From: Thermofilum pendens Hrk 5 | GTDB lineage: Archaea; Thermoproteota; Thermoprotei; Thermofilales; Thermofilaceae | Direction: 5' to 3' | Length of the DNA: 32,000 nucleotides | NCBI RefSeq assembly: GCF_000015225.1 | Contig: NC_008698.1 | Span: forward strand, 480,001-512,000 | Shown: piece by piece, positions 1 through 10,974 of the stretch | Numbering within the stretch: the first letter of the stretch is position 1 | Layout of the letters: every line of letters starts with the position of its first letter | Notes under the pieces: generated by a model | Told to the model about the DNA's origin: nothing | What the model saw: only the letters and a program-made list of their open reading frames with translations | Database searches by the model: none | Made by a program: the position numbers and the translations under genes

Positions 1-619
1 TATTCAGGTTCTCCTCCGAGAAACCCGCTGAGCGTAGAAAGTCGACATCCCCTTTGAGGCTTCTCATTTCGTCGAGGATAGGTTTCGCGGTTATGGCTCG
101 TGCGAGCTTCTCAACGGCGTCTATGCCGAGCAACCTGTCTAAAACCCTGCTTCTAACGCTTTGACTCCCGTGCGCGAGTAAAAACAGCGTTACGTAGTTT
201 ATCGAAACACTGCGGGAAAACTCGAAGAAGTCCATCCCCAGAAGCTCCTCTACTTTCTCCAGTACCTTTGAAGACTCTCTCAGAATACCCCCGTCCGGGA
301 GCAGAACCTCCACTCTCTCCCTGCCCTCCTTCGAAAGTCTCCTCTCGATCCTGTAAACTCCTTCACCCTCCACTTCTAATTCGAGTAGAACCCTGAGAGA
401 CGCTGACGCCGAGTTAACTAGGTCCTTCTTCGTGTAGACCCTTCTCTCGATGTAGGAGTCGGTCCCGTACAGGGCATACTCTACTGCCGATAAAAGGCTA
501 CTCTTACCCGAGCCAACAGGCCCGGCAATGACTGTTACTCCGTCTCCAAACTCGACGCGAAAAGGATCTTTAAAGAACCTGTAACCCTCAACCTCCACCC
601 TCCGCAGGAGTACAACCAC
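1..619 (-). CDS. SMC/Rad50-like P-loop ATPase, N-terminal part; the gene runs off the window start. Its position matches arcadin-4 of the crenactin cluster.
   Basis: The minus-strand frame is open from 619 to position 1. Translation: VVVLLRRVEVEGYRFFKDPFRVEFGDGVTVIAGPVGSGKSSLLSAVEYALYGTDSY, an SMC/Rad50-type N-terminus with a Walker A motif. Start is GTG 619 (alternative GTG 598), overlapping the stop of the upstream 73-aa ORF. Confidence 0.7.
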   Translation of the reverse strand, partial: MVVLLRRVEVEGYRFFKDPFRVEFGDGVTVIAGPVGSGKSSLLSAVEYALYGTDSYIERRVYTKKDLVNSASASLRVLLELEVEGEGVYRIERRLSKEGRERVEVLLPDGGILRESSKVLEKVEELLGMDFFEFSRSVSINYVTLFLLAHGSQSVRSRVLDRLLGIDAVEKLARAITAKPILDEMRSLKGDVDFLRSAGFSEENLN

Positions 620-833: not shown

Positions 834-1583
834 CTACCCGGATCCTCCCCGCCTCCTGGAGAGGAAGTCGAGCCAGGGATTATCGCGGGCAAAGGACGGA
901 AGCTCGGACTCATCGCCTCTCTCTGGGACCTTTTCCTCCGCGCGCCCCGCCCCTCCAGACGAGAGAATGCGCAACCAGGGGTTATCACGCGCGAAGGACG
1001 GTAGGTCGCCTGTCGATACCCCAGTAGCCTCGCCGCCCGGCACGGACACCGCTCGAGTCTCTCTTGCCTGCTCCGCACCTACAGAAAGGTCGCGTGTCGG
1101 AGAGTAGCCCAGGGGCGGGGGTAGCTGCTGAGCCCTGCTCTCTGAGGAGTAGCCTCCTAGAGCTGCGGGGTGCTTGTAGCTGGGCGTCCTGAGGGGGGCT
1201 GGAATTATCTCCACGACTCCCCCCTCCTCGGTAACGAGCAGTAAACCAGCTTTGTATTCGTCTTCAAACTCTCTCCTCAGAGAGTATCCCGTAAGCTTCA
1301 CCCAACCCTCCTCGTCCACCACTATGTACACTTTCCCATAGGAGGCATCGGCGCAAGTAGCGCCGGCACTCTTAACTCTTTGAAACATACTTCCCGTAGC
1401 CCCTGACCCTTCCGCGCCGGGCGCACCGCTCACGATCTTGAAGGCCACCCTAACCCCCGACCCATCAACCGCGGAGGCGTCGAAAGGTGGCTCCGCCTTC
1501 TCGAAGGCGCTCATACCAGCTTCCTTGGCGAAACGCTCGAGAGAGCGTATGATTCTCCGGCGCTTAACCTCCCCGCTATACAT
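834..1583 (-). CDS. Arcadin-2-like protein: globular N-domain, low-complexity linker and two C-terminal LPSFARDNPWL motifs
   Basis: 249-aa ORF immediately downstream of crenactin. An AT-rich TATA-like CTTTTTATATTCG lies in the 45-nt gap. The architecture (folded N-domain plus disordered tail ending in a short amphipathic motif) fits what is known for arcadin-2. The assignment rests on synteny and architecture only. Confidence 0.5.
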   Translation of the reverse strand: MYSGEVKRRRIIRSLERFAKEAGMSAFEKAEPPFDASAVDGSGVRVAFKIVSGAPGAEGSGATGSMFQRVKSAGATCADASYGKVYIVVDEEGWVKLTGYSLRREFEDEYKAGLLLVTEEGGVVEIIPAPLRTPSYKHPAALGGYSSESRAQQLPPPLGYSPTRDLSVGAEQARETRAVSVPGGEATGVSTGDLPSFARDNPWLRILSSGGAGRAEEKVPERGDESELPSFARDNPWLDFLSRRRGGSG

Positions 1584-1628: not shown

Positions 1629-2921
1629 CTAGTAGTGGACCCCTCTCTTGTACCAGCCTTCACGCCTCTTCCAGTCCCACTCTACGTCCTCGGGTACCGC
1701 TATGCTGTAAACGATCGTACCCTTCCAGACGGAGTATAAGGGGTCTGAGACCAACCTCACGTTGCTTTCAATGCCGAGCCTCTTAAGCTCCAAAGCGACC
1801 TTCGTAGCACTATCGACCGCGACGTCCTCAAGTCCCTGGGGGACCTTCCAGGCGAAGTTCCCTCCGCTCAGAATTATGTCCTTGTAGAGTGCCGGCTGTA
1901 GCTCAGTGCTAGTCCTTGAAACCGAGTGGGTAATTGCCTGTACCAGCGGCATGGTGCCCCTCACTCTCTCGCCGCCCACCACCGTGTCCTTGGGCCTGGG
2001 CATGCCTCTCTTGTAGTAGCTCTCGAAGATTTCATGTTCAGGGTTGAAGATTATCTCTCCTATTAGGAACCTCGCCCACCCCATGTTACCCATATCCACT
2101 TGGATGACCGTTCCAGGAATGCTGAAAACAGTCCTGAACCTCTCCGGCTCCCTCCTAGCCTTCTCTATAGCCTGGTTTAGGTCCCGCGGAATTAGCCCCA
2201 CGGCTTCCTTAAATTGCCGCACAAACTTCTCTTCCCTGGCTCTATCCTCGTACCCAAGGTCCCTCAGAATCTCAGCCGCTATAGCGTCCGCCTCCGCTCC
2301 TCCCCTATTAAGCGCCACTATCGCGTTGCGTATAGGGTACATCGAGATGGGAGTTATCTGGGTGTTCCCGTGCCCCGACTCCACGACGACACAGGTAACC
2401 GTTTTCTCTGCGATAGCCACTGCTAGGGGTTGCGGTATAATCGTAACTGCCTTTACGACCTTCTCCTCTGCGTCAAGCCTCGCGTGAATTTCGAAGATAC
2501 GCTGATACATGTAGTCCGGGGCTATGGCGGAAAGCGCCGCCGTTACGAAGAAGCCGTCGAAATCCTTAGCCTTAGGCTTCGTAGTCTCGAAGCCATACCG
2601 CGTGATCTCGTAGAGAACTCTCCACGCGCGCTCGTCGTCCTTTTCGACAAGGCCGTCGCGCATAGGGTAGACCAGGTACCTACCCACGTCGTCTATACTT
2701 CCAAGGTACTTCGGAAGCTCCGGGCCCACGACGACCTCCTTCCTTACTCCAAATATGTCGAGCAAAAGCCTCGATTCTCCGGCGAGAAGCAGGCCCCTGT
2801 TATCTATGACTAGAGGCTTCTCGGCTACGGGACCGAACTTAAACTGGCTAGTACCGTAGTCCTCGCCGTAAGCGTACTTCCTCTTATACTCACTTATAGC
2901 CAAACCCGCCACCATGCACAA
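1629..2921 (-). CDS. cren-1: Crenactin (archaeal actin homologue)
   Basis: 430 aa. There is collinear similarity to Pyrobaculum crenactin as I remember it (YGxDxGTS...FGP, DDExAWRVL, ALSAxAPDYMY, IxPQPLAVAIAE, ESGHGNxQ, ALNRGGAEA, RFLIGEIxFxPxHE, ILSGGxFxW, RLVSxPxYSVWxG). The start could be M1 (2921) or M3 (2915). Confidence 0.9.
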   Translation of the reverse strand: MCMVAGLAISEYKRKYAYGEDYGTSQFKFGPVAEKPLVIDNRGLLLAGESRLLLDIFGVRKEVVVGPELPKYLGSIDDVGRYLVYPMRDGLVEKDDERAWRVLYEITRYGFETTKPKAKDFDGFFVTAALSAIAPDYMYQRIFEIHARLDAEEKVVKAVTIIPQPLAVAIAEKTVTCVVVESGHGNTQITPISMYPIRNAIVALNRGGAEADAIAAEILRDLGYEDRAREEKFVRQFKEAVGLIPRDLNQAIEKARREPERFRTVFSIPGTVIQVDMGNMGWARFLIGEIIFNPEHEIFESYYKRGMPRPKDTVVGGERVRGTMPLVQAITHSVSRTSTELQPALYKDIILSGGNFAWKVPQGLEDVAVDSATKVALELKRLGIESNVRLVSDPLYSVWKGTIVYSIAVPEDVEWDWKRREGWYKRGVHY

Positions 2922-3016: not shown

Positions 3017-3046
3017 GGAGGGGGCCGGGCGCCTTTTCCTGCTGGT
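3017..3046 (-). repeat. Cassette 3' trailer element, copy A (ACCAGCAGGAAAAGGCGCCCGGCCCCCTCC on the minus strand)
   Basis: Lies 10 nt after the stop of the 3057-4565 ORF. It matches 20757-20787, 28060-28089 and the first 20 nt of 16397-16416. Confidence 0.8.
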
Positions 3047-3056
3047 CTTACCTCTT

Positions 3057-4565
3057 TTATTCTTGTGCCCCAGCTGGTTTAATTCTTAGCAGTTCTTCAA
3101 CCAGTTTGCGCGCAACGGGCTTAGCCTGCGCCTTTGCAACTGCGAAGCGGTAGAGTGCCTCCCAGAGTGTTGCATCCTCCGCCGCGTGCTCAAACAGAGA
3201 ACTTTGAGGAATTTCGTAGTAGAGCATCTCGCGCGTCGTGTGCGCGCGTGACTTGACGCGTGACCTGACAACCTTCACAGTCCACCCCTCCTCTACTGCG
3301 CGCTGGTACCAGCCTTGAGGCGCACTGTCAACGGGTATACGGGCGTATATGTAGGCGTACTTGCCGCCAACGGCAACCATAACGAGGTTAAGCAACGCTC
3401 CTGCCACCGGCGCGTAGAGGCCGAGCTCCTGGTAAGACCCCACTTTCTGTCCGGGTTTCCTACCCCTCTTACCCGGCGCTCCGTAGGCCACGAACAAGAT
3501 ATGCCTAACCTTCGCGCAACGCGTAACCTTGCCCACAAATGCTACGTATTCGCTGGCCCGTTCGACAGCAACGCGCGCGTTAAAGACAGCGCTCTCCGTC
3601 GGCAAGTAGACGTGCTCATGTCCAACCCTGAAGTAGAGCCATCGAAGCCTTAGAAAGTATTCGAGCTCGCCGTCCCCCAGGAAAGCGGTCGCCAGCGCCA
3701 CCGAGTCGCCGTTGAGCTCCTTGCACTCCTCTACGAGCCGGCGGAACTCTGCACGTTTAACCTCGCCGATAAGCCCTGAAGCCCAGCCTAGCTCCTCCTC
3801 GTAGCCGTAGATACTCACTCCCCACTGAAGGCTCAGCCTGGTGCTACCGAGAATACCCGCCGTGACACCGAGCCTGACATCGTCGCTTGGAAAGGCCGCG
3901 AGCGTCGATGGCAACTGCCAAGCCTGGGTAGTGCCGAAGGAGACGTAAGGATATCCTTCATGCGGCGGAGTGACGTCTGTGAGTAGCCACCCTCGTTGCA
4001 GGCTCCTAAGAACATCACTCGGAGTATTCACGAGAACCCTGGGAAACTCTGACTCGGTCCAGAAGCCTTTCAACGGGATGCGCACGACCCAGCGCGCAGG
4101 CTTGCTCACGACGACGTACCAGTTCTCGCGCGGCACGTACACGCGCCAGTGCCTTCCGTGCCTCTCAGCTCTAAGACCGTCCTCGGTAGCGTCGACGATT
4201 GCTTGTAGCCTTCCTCTGAGCTCCGTCACCGCGCTTCCCTCTCTCGGCCTGTTGTCATCGCTTAGCAAGAGGTACTTCCTCGCGTCGCTGTCGATGAAGC
4301 GGTAAAACCTCGGGTAGACTTCGTCCGGCACTACGCTCAGCGCGTGCGCCGCAAACCTGGTAAAGTCCCAGTTAATTTCGGTCACAGCATCATGCAGGCC
4401 GCGGTAGTGTATCTCGCCCCTCTTCTTCTTACCCCTGGACCTCCTCTTATCCTCCGTCCTGGTGGTGTAGAGGCTTAAAGCCGCACGCCTCCAAACCTCC
4501 TCCCTAACAACCTTCTCGACCTCCTCCCCCGCCGCTCCATTTCCCCTCATGTACTCTTCACCCAT
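3057..4565 (-). CDS. Large cassette protein, copy A (502 aa), a divergent paralogue of 19337-20755 and 26636-28054; function unknown
   Basis: Long ORF with motifs collinear to copies B/C: MRGNGAAGE vs MRGDGAGEG, RHWRVYV vs RRWRLYV, LQRGWLLTDVT vs AQDGWILGDAS, GTTQAWQL vs GTAQTWQV, LSLQWGVSIYG vs VSIMWQVRVHG, ATAFLGDGE vs ATYYAADGK. It has the same leader and trailer DNA. Confidence 0.8.
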   Translation of the reverse strand: MGEEYMRGNGAAGEEVEKVVREEVWRRAALSLYTTRTEDKRRSRGKKKRGEIHYRGLHDAVTEINWDFTRFAAHALSVVPDEVYPRFYRFIDSDARKYLLLSDDNRPREGSAVTELRGRLQAIVDATEDGLRAERHGRHWRVYVPRENWYVVVSKPARWVVRIPLKGFWTESEFPRVLVNTPSDVLRSLQRGWLLTDVTPPHEGYPYVSFGTTQAWQLPSTLAAFPSDDVRLGVTAGILGSTRLSLQWGVSIYGYEEELGWASGLIGEVKRAEFRRLVEECKELNGDSVALATAFLGDGELEYFLRLRWLYFRVGHEHVYLPTESAVFNARVAVERASEYVAFVGKVTRCAKVRHILFVAYGAPGKRGRKPGQKVGSYQELGLYAPVAGALLNLVMVAVGGKYAYIYARIPVDSAPQGWYQRAVEEGWTVKVVRSRVKSRAHTTREMLYYEIPQSSLFEHAAEDATLWEALYRFAVAKAQAKPVARKLVEELLRIKPAGAQE

Positions 4566-4652
4566 ACTACCACCCCTCCTTAAATGGTGGAGGGGGCGCC
4601 CTGCGAGGGCGCGGCATCAGGGGTCAGCGTGGAGGGAGAGGCCGGGAAAGAG
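4566..4652 (-). promoter_or_regulatory. Conserved cassette leader, copy A (palindrome GCGCCC-TCGCA-GGGCGC, then CCACCATTTAAGGAGGGGTGGTAG directly before the ATG)
   Basis: About 84% identical by eye over about 88 nt to 19248-19336. The proximal about 50 nt is also shared with 26585-26635. Confidence 0.75.
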
Positions 4653-4664
4653 TGTTGACCGAGC

Positions 4665-4895
4665 ATGAGTGACCCGAGGGTTACCGTGCGAACGATAGGC
4701 ACGTTGTCGAGGCTACTGGCGAGCACTCTTAGGCGTGACGGGCTGTACGAGGCTAGGCTCGTCGAAGCATTAGACGCAGTAGAGGAGTTCCTAGCCTCCG
4801 TGAGAGGCGCGACCCCGCGCATCGAGGAGGACGAAAAGCTGGCAAGAGAGCTGGAGGAGGACATCGAGGGGCTGAGAGGGCTAGGGCTAGTATAA
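4665..4895 (+). CDS. Small cassette protein, copy A (76 aa, helical, acidic C-terminal half), divergent from the large ORF
   Basis: ORF track. It has a close homologue without a start codon at 18824-19040 (minus strand) and a distant one at 26394-26618. A T-rich tract follows the stop. Confidence 0.6.
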   Translation: MSDPRVTVRTIGTLSRLLASTLRRDGLYEARLVEALDAVEEFLASVRGATPRIEEDEKLARELEEDIEGLRGLGLV

Positions 4896-4970
4896 AAATC
4901 CTTCTTCTTTTTCCTCTTCTCGCGAGCGCAAGGTTTTTACGGAGAGCCATAGCTATTCGCGCGGACATGT

Positions 4971-5378
4971 ATGAGCGAGACAATAGAAGTAGTCCTCGAA
5001 AGGTTTGGTTCAAAAGTGGCGCTCCTAGAGCTGTACGAGAGCCAGATACCACTCAACTTTGCCAACATCTCAAAGCTAAGCCAGGTAATCACGACAGCTA
5101 AGAGGCTCGGATCCCTAGTACTGCTGAGCATACCGGCTCAGCTTAGACCGGAGGGGACGATTATGACCTCCTTGAAGGCTGGAGAAGTGGTCGTAGTCCC
5201 AGTTGCCCGCTCGCTCGGCGTAGTGATAACCGATGTAGAAGCATTACCCCTAGAATCCTACAAGGCAGGAATCGTAAAAACGGGGTTAGAGAACCTCCGA
5301 GGACTGCGCGAAGGAACCATACTCAACGCGAAATTCTCCCTTAAGCAACTCGAGGAACCTCAACGACAACAATCTTAA
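4971..5378 (+). CDS. Hypothetical protein (135 aa)
   Basis: ORF track with coding-like composition. I am confident of no family signature; a cyclophilin-like small archaeal fold is only a guess. Confidence 0.55.
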   Translation: MSETIEVVLERFGSKVALLELYESQIPLNFANISKLSQVITTAKRLGSLVLLSIPAQLRPEGTIMTSLKAGEVVVVPVARSLGVVITDVEALPLESYKAGIVKTGLENLRGLREGTILNAKFSLKQLEEPQRQQS

Positions 5379-5402
5379 AAGTGCGCGAGCACTTCCTGCC
5401 AC

Positions 5403-5789
5403 GTGGCAAGCGAAGAAGTCAGGGTTGAGCCAATTCTAGCCGTGAAGCTTGCCTCGATCAACGACCTGGCTAGGCTGGCTAGCAGTGCGTCAACCATGGG
5501 ACACGTGACCTACGTGGTGCACTTTGCGGAAACACCTGAAAGGCACATCTACGGTATATTCATCGTCTTCAGGGATTACTACAAGCTCTACGGTCTCCCG
5601 ATGTTCTACTACATAGAGAGTAAAGAGGAGCTCAGGGGGAACTACATCCTCTTTAGGTCGGACGATTCCGGCGAGCAAGTGGAGGTATCTAAAGGCGCCA
5701 AGCCGGGCTACATAGCCATACCTATAGTCAACCTCGCCGGAAGAATCCCGATAGTAGCTTTAGGGGAAGTTAGACAGAAACAAAGCTAG
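5403..5789 (+). CDS. Hypothetical protein (128 aa, GTG start)
   Basis: ORF track. It is same-strand and 24 nt after the previous ORF. No recognised signature. Confidence 0.55.
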   Translation: MASEEVRVEPILAVKLASINDLARLASSASTMGHVTYVVHFAETPERHIYGIFIVFRDYYKLYGLPMFYYIESKEELRGNYILFRSDDSGEQVEVSKGAKPGYIAIPIVNLAGRIPIVALGEVRQKQS

Positions 5790-5804: not shown

Positions 5805-6086
5805 TTACTTCTTTCTCTCGAGGACTATCTCGATTGTGCTTATGGTCCTCTCCTTGCCGGCTTCGCCTACTTTCTCGCTGCCGATTTTGATGCTGCTGAC
5901 GTCGACTTCGTCCTTCAGGAACCTGCTCCTCACTATCTCGGCTACGTCGACGGCCCTGCTTATGGCCCTTCCGCGAGCCTTTATGGAGACCTTCTTAGCG
6001 CCCTGGTTGAACTGTATCACTGCTGCAAGTACGTAGTTCATTACGCTCTTGTTTCCTACTAGCACGCTTCCTTCTGCTAGCGACAT
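5805..6086 (-). CDS. albA: Alba (Sso10b/Sac10b family) chromatin protein
   Basis: 93 aa: [49 protein letters not shown]...IEIVLERK is a typical Alba sequence. A TATA-like TTATAAA lies about 40 nt upstream on the minus strand. Confidence 0.93.
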
Positions 6087-9425: not shown

Positions 9426-9437
9426 GCGAGAAGCTGG

Positions 9438-9556
9438 TGGGCCCGCCGGGATTCGAACCCGGGACCCTTCCCGCACGCGTAGCGAGCTACGCGTGACCCG
9501 GTTATGAGCCGGGTGCTGTAGGCTCGGCGGGATCCACCTGGCTGAGCTACGGGCCC
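9438..9556 (-). tRNA. tRNA with anticodon CAT (elongator Met or Ile2-type) interrupted by two non-canonical introns; CCA is encoded at 9435-9437
   Basis: Minus-strand features: acceptor GGGCCCG/CGGGCCC, anticodon arm CCCGG-CTCATAA-CCGGG, and T arm CCGGG-TTCGAAT-CCCGG. About 16 extra nt lie in the 3' half of the D arm and about 29 extra nt in the variable region, including a perfect CACGCGTAGC/GCTACGCGTG hairpin. 119 nt minus 45 nt gives a 74-nt mature body. Confidence 0.85.
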
Positions 9557-9639
9557 TGCGTGGCTTGATATTGCAAATTACCTAATAAAGATTGCGCGGT
9601 AAACGTGCGCACGCGGACGCACGACTGTTTAGGCGCAGT

Positions 9640-10974
9640 TTAGACCTCTTTTAAAGCTTCCCTCAAGGATTCTTCTAGTATGCGTAGCCCGGTCTCCATT
9701 TCTTGCTGGGTTATTATCAGGGGCGGGGCTATCCGGATAGTGCTCACCCCGGCTCCTATCACGAGCAGGCCTTTCTTGAAAGCTATCTCGAGCGTTTTCT
9801 GCAGGAGCTTTGGGTTCGGGGAACCGTCTCTCGCGATGAGCTCTACGCCTATCATGAGCCCTTTCCCACGCACGTCTCCTATATAGGGTATTTCCTCCTG
9901 TAGCTCGCGTAGCCTCTTCATCGCGTATTCACCTACTCTCGTCGCGTTGTCCAGGAGTTTTTCCTCCTCTATTACCTCGATCGTTGCGAGAGCTGCGGCG
10001 CAGCTGACGGGGTTTCCTCCGAAGGTGGAGGCGTGGGAGCCCGGAGGTAGGTCCATGACTTCCGCCCTACCTATTATCGCGCCCAGCGGGAGCCCCGAAG
10101 CTATCCCCTTGGCTACGGCTATTATGTCGGGTTCCACTCCGAAGTGCTCTATCGCGAACCACTTCCCGGTTCTCCCGAATCCGCTCTGGACCTCGTCTAC
10201 CACCAGGAGTATTCCGTACTTGTCCGCTAGCTCGCGTAGCCTCTTAAAGAACTCGGGCGGCGGTACTATGTAGCCGCCTTCCCCCGCTATCGGCTCTACG
10301 ACGAATGCGGCGACCTCCTCTGGGGGTACGTACTTCTTGAGCATCCACTCTTCGATGAAGTCGACGCACCAAAGGTTGCATTCAGGGTACTTCTGCCTGA
10401 AGGGGCACCTGTAACAGTATGGATAGGGTGCGTGGAACACGCCGGGTAGTAGCGGGCCTAGGTGTCTTCTCTGTACTGGCTTGCTACTCGTGAGGGAGAG
10501 GGACCCGTACGTTCGCCCGTGGAACGAGCCGGCAAATGCGATTATGTAGGGCCGCGTGCCCCTGAAATGCCCTCTTGCAGTCTTTATTGCTGCCTCTATG
10601 GACTCCGTTCCGCTGTTCGTGTAGAACACCTTCTTCGGGAAGCGTCCCGGAGTTATCGATACAAGCTTCTCGGCGAGTTTGACGGGCTCCTCGTAGAGGA
10701 AGTCCGTCAAAGAGTAGTGAAGTAGCCTCTCTGCTTGTTCTTTTATCGCTTTGACGACTTTAGGGTGGCAGTGCCCCGTGTTCGTCACGCCTATCCCGGA
10801 GTTGAAGTCCAGGTAGACGTTTCCGTCGACGTCTTCGACCCACACGCCGTGTGCGCGCTTGGCGACCAAGGGGTACCAGCGCGCGAAGCTCTGCATCAAC
10901 AGTGCGGAGTCCTTTTCGGCGATCTTCCTAGAGTTAGGTCCCGGAGGCTCAACGATTATTTTCGGTCCGTTCAC
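9640..10974 (-). CDS. Class-III PLP-dependent aminotransferase (4-aminobutyrate/ornithine aminotransferase family)
   Basis: 444 aa with hallmarks GxxxxNxGHxHP, FxNSGTEsxEaAIKxAR, DEVQSGFGRTGKWFA and AKGIASGxPLGA (PLP lysine). Substrate specificity cannot be read from the sequence. Confidence 0.9.
   Translation of the reverse strand: MNGPKIIVEPPGPNSRKIAEKDSALLMQSFARWYPLVAKRAHGVWVEDVDGNVYLDFNSGIGVTNTGHCHPKVVKAIKEQAERLLHYSLTDFLYEEPVKLAEKLVSITPGRFPKKVFYTNSGTESIEAAIKTARGHFRGTRPYIIAFAGSFHGRTYGSLSLTSSKPVQRRHLGPLLPGVFHAPYPYCYRCPFRQKYPECNLWCVDFIEEWMLKKYVPPEEVAAFVVEPIAGEGGYIVPPPEFFKRLRELADKYGILLVVDEVQSGFGRTGKWFAIEHFGVEPDIIAVAKGIASGLPLGAIIGRAEVMDLPPGSHASTFGGNPVSCAAALATIEVIEEEKLLDNATRVGEYAMKRLRELQEEIPYIGDVRGKGLMIGVELIARDGSPNPKLLQKTLEIAFKKGLLVIGAGVSTIRIAPPLIITQQEMETGLRILEESLREALKEV

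Follow-up and report, generated by a model that had tools for sequence, protein, structure and literature searches.

Outside the Asgard archaea, no prokaryotic protein is known to be more closely related to F-actin than crenactin; little has been established, as far as we are aware, about what it does in the cell and how it is controlled, and we know of no regulator other than arcadin-2 whose binding mode has been solved. Here, a 32,000-nucleotide stretch of the genome of Thermofilum pendens Hrk 5 (RefSeq assembly GCF_000015225.1, contig NC_008698.1, positions 480,001 to 512,000 of the forward strand; hereafter the window, with positions counted from its first letter) was analysed with respect to a 249-residue protein encoded beside crenactin, the tail of which carries two copies of a short, tryptophan-containing motif.

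The closest described system is arcadin-2 (Rkd2) of Pyrobaculum calidifontis. A 17-residue peptide from this protein is sufficient on its own to depolymerise P. calidifontis crenactin filaments (PMC5173319). The peptide forms a 1:1 complex with crenactin with a dissociation constant (Kd) of 31 nM, and was resolved in the groove of the protein at 1.6 Å (Izore et al., 2016; PDB 5LY3; PMC5173319). The groove that it occupies separates subdomains IA and IIA and is the site that receives the D-loop of the adjacent subunit; within the filament the subunits are 25.6 Å apart across the strands and about 51 Å apart longitudinally (PMC5173319). An analogy with thymosin beta4, which binds the groove with high affinity and prevents monomers from polymerising, was proposed by Izore et al., and the arcadin-2 peptide was found to lie in the crenactin groove in the orientation opposite to thymosin beta4 (PMC5173319). 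In addition to this reversal, thymosin beta4 differs in having a single site and an unrelated sequence.

Two further systems offer partial parallels. Tandem WH2 and beta-thymosin proteins (Spire, Cordon-bleu, ciboulot and the bacterial VopL/VopF) also carry short helical peptides, repeated every 30-40 residues or so along a disordered chain, and target the hydrophobic cleft at the barbed face. The likeness to the window protein is architectural only: the sequences are unrelated, Pfam finds neither WH2 nor thymosin in the window protein, no LKK[TV] comes after either helix, and any nucleation by it would rest on analogy. In the ParR-ParM system (PDB 4A62), a prokaryotic actin likewise receives the C-terminal peptide of a partner protein in its hydrophobic groove. 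ParR differs from the window protein, which is without a recognisable DNA-binding domain; viral and Thermofilum carriers of the same motif, by contrast, appear to join the peptide to a helix-turn-helix (HTH) or winged-helix domain and a coiled coil, an arrangement that recalls segregation adaptors.

Compared with P. calidifontis arcadin-2, the window protein shares its gene position in the arcade cluster, immediately after crenactin, a homologous N-terminal domain, and a middle region of variable sequence that leads to a short C-terminal tryptophan helix, which is conserved and has the core N-x-W-[VL]-x-[IF]-L. It differs in having two copies of the putative binding motif instead of one, and in combining an extended LPSF half of the motif with a proline- and glycine-rich linker in place of the coiled coil. 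The protein is fairly probably a bivalent crenactin binder that provides double-capacity or high-avidity sequestration and capping, with both copies working. Such a naturally bivalent protein would provide a simple one-motif versus two-motif system for asking whether multivalent groove binders alter the dynamics of crenactin as tandem WH2 proteins alter those of actin.

Identity of the protein and its duplicated motif

A family profile was built from 76 crenactin-adjacent proteins, the window protein included. When compared by hhalign with the arcadin-2 proteins of P. calidifontis and Thermoproteus tenax, this profile gave a match of 98.6% probability (E = 1.4e-15, 105 columns), in which residues 14-140 of the window protein correspond to residues 7-116 of P. 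calidifontis arcadin-2. The P. calidifontis locus was located by its crenactin, whose sequence equals that of PDB 4cj7 (100% identity); the gene downstream of it (WP_011850311.1, 203 residues) scores 300 bits against NF053561 (cut-off 290), and its last 17 residues, from arginine to arginine, are RGGIGENEWVKILRSKR, equal to the published R187-R203 peptide (PMC5173319). Furthermore, the minus-strand order of crenactin, the 249-residue open reading frame (ORF), an arcadin-3-like ORF and an SMC_N ATPase in the window is the order found in P. calidifontis, T. tenax and Vulcanisaeta. The N-terminal profile match and the matching synteny identify the protein as a genuine, though very divergent, arcadin-2 homologue, in agreement with the sequence-only reading, an annotation made earlier without database searches, which had placed it in the arcadin-2 position.

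Direct searches with the protein were unproductive. A PDB sequence search with the 249-residue protein gave no match, the 17-residue peptide of 5LY3 being below the 20-residue limit of the library, and a word-indexed homologue search returned the protein itself alone. Pfam and NCBIfam scans yielded no accepted family and no DNA-binding domain. A sub-threshold Pfam match to L51_S25_CI-B8 at window positions 837-911 (residues 225-247; 21.9 bits), seen also in viral motif proteins, was rejected as almost certainly due to chance.

The conservation of the motif was assessed by a crenactin scan of one genome per GTDB species, which yielded 80 crenactin loci of other species, belonging to Thermofilaceae, other Thermoproteia, Bathyarchaeia, Nitrososphaerota/Caldarchaeales, Culexarchaeia and Brockarchaeota. 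The best crenactin matches came from metagenome-assembled genomes of Thermofilaceae (72-79% identity), and the window is thereby assigned to that family. Exactly one C-terminal motif was found in a crenactin-adjacent gene at 73 of the 80 loci, with the consensus [LV]P[SDE][FY]xx[DNG]NPW[LIV]xxL[SA]x[RK], and the remaining seven gave no match. The nearest relative found (L081), whose crenactin is 87% identical, has one copy and ends in LPSFIQDNPWLRILSRERKR followed by the stop codon; a single copy is present also in L082, P. calidifontis, T. tenax and Vulcanisaeta. Among the roughly 80 orthologues, two copies occur in the window species only.

The motif shares the core [DE]N[PE]W[VL]x[IF]L with the crystallised peptide, and when anchored on the tryptophan, DNPWLRILS (copy 1) and DNPWLDFLS (copy 2) align with ENEWVKILR. 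In 47 aligned orthologues, Thermoproteaceae included, the asparagine, the tryptophan and the second leucine never vary, and the two prolines hardly do; copy 1 of the window protein has all of these family-invariant residues (P, N, P, W and L). Vulcanisaeta, with the C-terminus LPDFLSNNPWVDVLRKKGGGSG and the motif LPDFLSNNPWVDVLRKK, is intermediate between the window-type and Pyrobaculum-type forms; the LPSF half is present there and in most lineages, and is degenerate in Pyrobaculum and Thermoproteus. LPSFxxDNPWL thus appears, by this alignment, to be the conserved C-terminal crenactin-binding element of the family. A resemblance to the Pyrobaculum peptide, which the earlier reading had left unconfirmed, is borne out by the tryptophan alignment together with the Vulcanisaeta intermediate, and the copy number per species places the motif firmly among the arcadin-2 orthologues.

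LPSFARDNPWL is present twice in the translated ORF, at residues 194-204 (window 972-1004) and 228-238 (window 870-902), the corresponding 14-residue versions being LPSFARDNPWLRIL (window 963-1004) and LPSFARDNPWLDFL (window 861-902). Six of the 11 codons differ (CTA/CTT, TTC/TTT, GCG/GCC, CGT/CGC, AAC/AAT, TTG/CTC), and between the 33-nucleotide cores there are seven nucleotide differences, all of them synonymous, of which six fall on third codon positions and the seventh on a first position. The six codon differences and their synonymy hold exactly as listed in the earlier reading; the distance of 20 residues that it gave between the copies is corrected to 23 residues from the end of one core to the start of the other, or 17 if the 17-mers are taken as the units, and the period from start to start is 34 residues.

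In a Monte Carlo calculation, seven random substitutions in 33 nucleotides left the peptide unaltered with P ~2.5e-5 or less. By the Nei-Gojobori method, the proportion of synonymous differences (pS) in the motif core was 0.75, which is saturated, and the proportion of nonsynonymous differences (pN) was 0-0.04; when the flanks were added, pN rose to 0.18-0.31, and conservation is therefore limited to the motif. Both copies score alike with the motif hidden Markov model (HMM), at 41.4 bits (i-E = 2.9e-11) for copy 1 and 41.7 bits for copy 2. Since none of the seven differences alters the peptide, saturation has been reached at synonymous sites and the fit to the family profile is equal, purifying selection on both copies is supported, as had been argued from the codons alone in the earlier reading, in preference to a recent DNA duplication.

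Two independent assemblies of the same species (L083 and L084) encode a 249-residue protein identical to that of the window, which rules out an assembly artefact; the arcadin-2 genes of L083 and the window are distinguished by three silent changes, including one within motif 1, at codon L204. That the internal copy might be a functionless leftover of a DNA duplication could be argued from its being known in one species only. However, no amino acid has changed in 11 residues despite a pS of 0.75, an outcome as improbable as the Monte Carlo value above, the flanks have diverged (pN 0.31 with the flanks included), and strains whose genes have accumulated silent changes still encode one and the same protein. 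The codon pattern rules out a recent duplication and effectively excludes the neutral relic, to which only a very slight probability is assigned. For crenactin, pS between the window species and its nearest sequenced relative is 0.795, also saturated. The duplication is old and, because pS is saturated both between the copies and between the species, cannot be ordered relative to the split from that relative.

Proposed crenactin binding with two motifs

In the proposed mechanism, arcadin-2 of the window species would act as a crenactin regulator that grips its target through a short C-terminal helix containing a tryptophan. The binding module LPSFxxDNPWLxxLS has been duplicated in cis in the window lineage, and because purifying selection would keep both copies functional, at a period of 34 residues along a disordered tail, one arcadin-2 molecule would offer two groove-binding peptides. 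Such a molecule would most likely bind or sequester two crenactin monomers, or a single one with higher avidity through rebinding, and its bivalency would strengthen the capping and depolymerising activity known for the single-motif protein. It is hypothesised, as in the earlier reading, that two crenactin protomers are held at once by the two motifs; indirect support comes from an unrelated protein family in which the motif again occurs in tandem, with a like spacing of about 34 residues.

Structure prediction with AlphaFold2 (AF2) is consistent with part of this scheme. When crenactin was fused to residues 149-249 of the window protein, residues 227-243, covering motif 2, reached a predicted local distance difference test score (pLDDT) of 50-70, with a helix at PWLDFLSRRRG, and motif 1 and the linker stayed at 25-31. 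With moderate confidence, the predicted ordering of the terminal copy is the pattern to be expected if one groove accepts one motif and prefers the terminal copy with its basic tail. The same model could be taken to suggest that the two copies have diverged in their partners, the terminal copy with its RRR tail alone binding crenactin and the internal copy (…RILSSGG) serving another partner or acting as a lower-affinity regulatory or autoinhibitory site. Basic residues follow the terminal copies in all families, orthologues ending in a [KR][KR]G-type tail and P. calidifontis in ...RSKR, whereas serine and glycine follow the internal copies. Such a division of labour is nevertheless highly improbable: the 11-residue cores are identical even at the alanine and arginine positions, which vary freely between species, the copies are equal in family-profile score, and the model contained a single crenactin, so that one copy at most could dock.

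The regular spacing of the motifs raises the question of whether the protein might function as a nucleator or bridge resembling tandem WH2 proteins, in which the two motifs would fix two crenactin subunits in a defined geometry, either as a cross-strand or as a barbed-end-capped dimer, and thereby seed or crosslink filaments. Repeat periods of tandem WH2 and beta-thymosin proteins span a range that includes about 34 residues, and a period of this length is common to the window protein and to unrelated viral arrays. A flexible spacer of about 20 residues could, moreover, reach the cross-strand distance of 25.6 Å or the longitudinal distance of about 51 Å (PMC5173319). This function is nonetheless considered unlikely. 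A groove-bound peptide leaves no room for the D-loop of an adjoining subunit, and two occupied monomers therefore cannot contact each other longitudinally; published assays, in addition, show filament depolymerisation (PMC5173319).

The linker between the N-terminal domain and the motifs has a proline plus glycine content of 24% and a longest stretch free of these residues of 12 residues, versus stretches of 30-89 residues in the middle region of most orthologues. A PDB profile search with the family alignment found coiled coils only, at profile positions 128-187, and was uninformative on the fold of the N-terminal domain. These observations would fit an origin of the duplication by compensation, in which a coiled coil that had oligomerised arcadin-2 and presented several tails was lost and bivalency was restored by duplication in cis. 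However, the coiled coil has likewise been replaced by a linker in three other orthologues (L081, L004 and L009), all of which keep a single motif, and the duplication was therefore not necessary. The published arcadin-2-crenactin complex is, furthermore, described as 1:1, and oligomerisation of arcadin-2 is presumed. Compensation is accordingly judged quite unlikely as an explanation.

Several results weigh against a bivalent crenactin binder, and the three single-motif proteins that have lost the coiled coil are among them. Neither the window protein nor its nearest relative matches NF053561, even at E <= 10, and BLASTP of the window protein against P. calidifontis arcadin-2 gives no significant alignment; Vulcanisaeta arcadin-2 itself reaches only 38 bits against NF053561, a model for which Pyrobaculum-like sequences evidently served as the basis. 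Furthermore, the peptide crystallised from Pyrobaculum lacks the LPSF half of the motif. When crenactin was fused to full-length arcadin-2, AF2 returned a folded crenactin and an arcadin-2 part with pLDDT below 50, the motifs being at 33-40 and neither of them docked. The model with the short tail is of moderate confidence only, and the placement of motif 2 in the groove is presumed, just as groove binding by each copy in the window species is inferred from homology.

The presumed D-loop of crenactin, at about residues 40-52 of the 430-residue ORF (AGESRLLLDIFGV), contains LLLDIF, which has the same hydrophobic pattern as PWLDFL in motif 2 (arcadin-2 residues 236-241). Such a likeness is to be expected if the peptide mimics the D-loop helix that it displaces. 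In the nearest relative the D-loop is identical but the motif reads WLRIL, so there is no clear covariation.

Motif carriers other than arcadin-2

When 1.8 billion representative proteins were searched exhaustively with HMMER, there were 16 matches only, several of which aligned over both motifs. One group of proteins with tandem motifs (P0123, P0125, P0128, P0130, P0131 and P0227, on L088-L093 and L137) comprises 297-388 residues and is organised as an N-terminal zinc ribbon, a coiled coil, a winged helix and a tail with two or three copies of LPSFxxDNPWLxxL[SA]. The zinc ribbon corresponds to PF22415 (Pyrobaculum spherical virus ORF131-like; 32.9 bits in P0130), and the winged helix gives weak matches to HTH_20 (17.7-20.5 bits, below the cut-off) and to phrog_2440, a transcriptional regulator. 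Within the arrays the start-to-start spacing is 30-40 residues, mostly 33-37, versus 34 in the window protein, and copies within one protein show saturated pS and low pN. Given these conserved internal copies, a free C-terminus is not required, and multivalency has been selected repeatedly. Relatives without the tail (L095, L096 and L109) stop right after the winged helix, and the array is therefore an add-on module.

The 15-kb contig that encodes P0227 (L137) has genes for a DnaA-like initiator (phrog_5484, 2e-26) and for an integrase (phrog_9208, 9e-40), as well as a weak match to a fusellovirus VP2 capsid protein and several genes with PHROG matches only. Judged from this gene content, the fusellovirus-like contig is a virus or provirus. 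A scan of viral contigs for the winged-helix, tandem-motif family gave no match.

Single motifs are also found on other proteins. On L128 and L129 (positions 9434-10087, plus strand), a 217-residue protein combines an HTH of the Sigma70_r4_2 type (31 bits, above the cut-off) with a coiled coil and one C-terminal LPSFVQDNPWIEILSRTRVP. It lies in a chromosomal context, its cluster is annotated as Thermofilum sp. (MCC6003055.1), and it is a possible candidate for an adaptor between DNA and crenactin. Furthermore, a cassette present in L118-L134 (for example L120, 8982-10738) contains a tyrosine recombinase, a small motif protein and a conserved 189-residue protein. The recombinase (PF00589) is 81-94% identical between contigs and may be a XerA-type chromosomal enzyme or the integrase of a mobile element; the small protein has 56-170 residues and ends in GLPSF[AV]QDNPW[IL]xILS[KA][KR][HQ] directly before the stop codon, and the 189-residue protein has no family match.

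Tentatively, and with more doubt than confidence, LPSFxxDNPWLxxLS may be viewed as a portable crenactin-docking peptide that extends beyond arcadin-2, the arrays being an archaeal counterpart of tandem-WH2 arrays. The carriers, some of them encoded by viruses or proviruses of crenactin-bearing archaea, would then be either ParR-like adaptors linking the DNA of viruses, plasmids or chromosomes to crenactin filaments or viral effectors that dismantle the host cytoskeleton, and the arcadin-2 of the window would be the cellular version of this multivalent design. If this is true, the peptide on viral and Thermofilum DNA-binding proteins would serve as a sequence tag for crenactin partners in genomes, and would open a concrete route to asking whether crenactin moves DNA. 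None of the inspected loci that carry the motif outside arcadin-2 has a crenactin gene, and the literature searched contained nothing on such carriers or on duplication of the motif.

Gene layout and neighbouring features

The features of the locus are collected in Table 1. The crenactin ORF aligns end to end with P. calidifontis crenactin (PDB 4cj7/5ly3/5mw1; phmmer, E = 2.2e-117), and the ORF for the 249-residue protein begins 45 nucleotides downstream of it. The arcadin-3-like ORF reaches 26.6 bits against NCBIfam NF053562 (Rkd3, arcadin-3; E = 4.6e-6), below the curated cut-off. The SMC-like gene is complete on the same-species contig L083, where it encodes 791 residues with SMC_N and AAA_23 domains.

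Table 1. Positions of the crenactin-arcadin features in the window, with two example loci of tandem-motif proteins
Feature	Position	Strand	Basis
Divergent arcadin-2 homologue, 249 residues and stop	834..1583	minus	ORF list; N-terminal domain profile; adjoins crenactin; same protein in L083/L084
N-terminal alpha/beta domain, residues 1 to ~128, common to all arcadin-2 proteins	1200..1583	minus	hhalign, family alignments
Pro/Gly/Ser-rich low-complexity linker, residues ~129-191, in place of the coiled coil of orthologues	1011..1199	minus	composition
Motif copy 1, internal, GDLPSFARDNPWLRILS, residues 192-208	960..1010	minus	motif HMM
Spacer between copies, SGGAGRAEEKVPERGDE, residues 209-225, sequence not conserved	909..959	minus	translation
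Motif copy 2, terminal, SELPSFARDNPWLDFLS, residues 226-242	858..908	minus	motif HMM; ancestral C-terminal position seen in 73 orthologues
Basic C-terminal tail RRRGGSG and stop codon	834..857	minus	translation
Crenactin; called gene of 424 residues from TTG at 2903 (ORF 424/430 residues)	1629..2903/2921	minus	PDB match, Pfam Actin, gene call
Arcadin-3-like small protein, 73 residues	588..809	minus	NCBIfam NF053562 and position as in Thermoproteaceae clusters
SMC/Rad50-like ATPase, 5' part, arcadin-4 position, gene runs past the window	1..619	minus	coordinates mapped from L083
Tandem-motif example loci	L088 726-1892; L137 6171-7310		

In Caldarchaeales and relatives (L064, L068, L074, L075 and L077), the arcadin-2 gene with the motif precedes crenactin instead of following it, both being on one strand, and the gene order of the cluster is therefore not fixed. 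No arcadin-1 (PF18653) is evident beside crenactin in the window, unlike in Pyrobaculum and Thermoproteus. The upstream side of crenactin (window 4971-5789, plus strand, and 5805-6086, minus strand) is taken up by two divergently oriented small ORFs of 135 and 128 residues without family matches and by a 93-residue ORF in the place where related contigs have a called Alba gene (PF01918).

Between crenactin and these upstream genes, a segment of 1.9 kb (window 3017-4926) is missing from the same-species contig L083, with flanks that are 99.3-99.6% identical to L083 on both sides and a 3-bp overlap at the junction. Contig L084 stops 70 bp inside the segment, and no clear terminal inverted repeats were found at it. 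The segment carries a 502-residue ORF (3057..4565, minus strand) without a Pfam, NCBIfam or PHROG match, and is probably a strain-variable insertion or mobile element.

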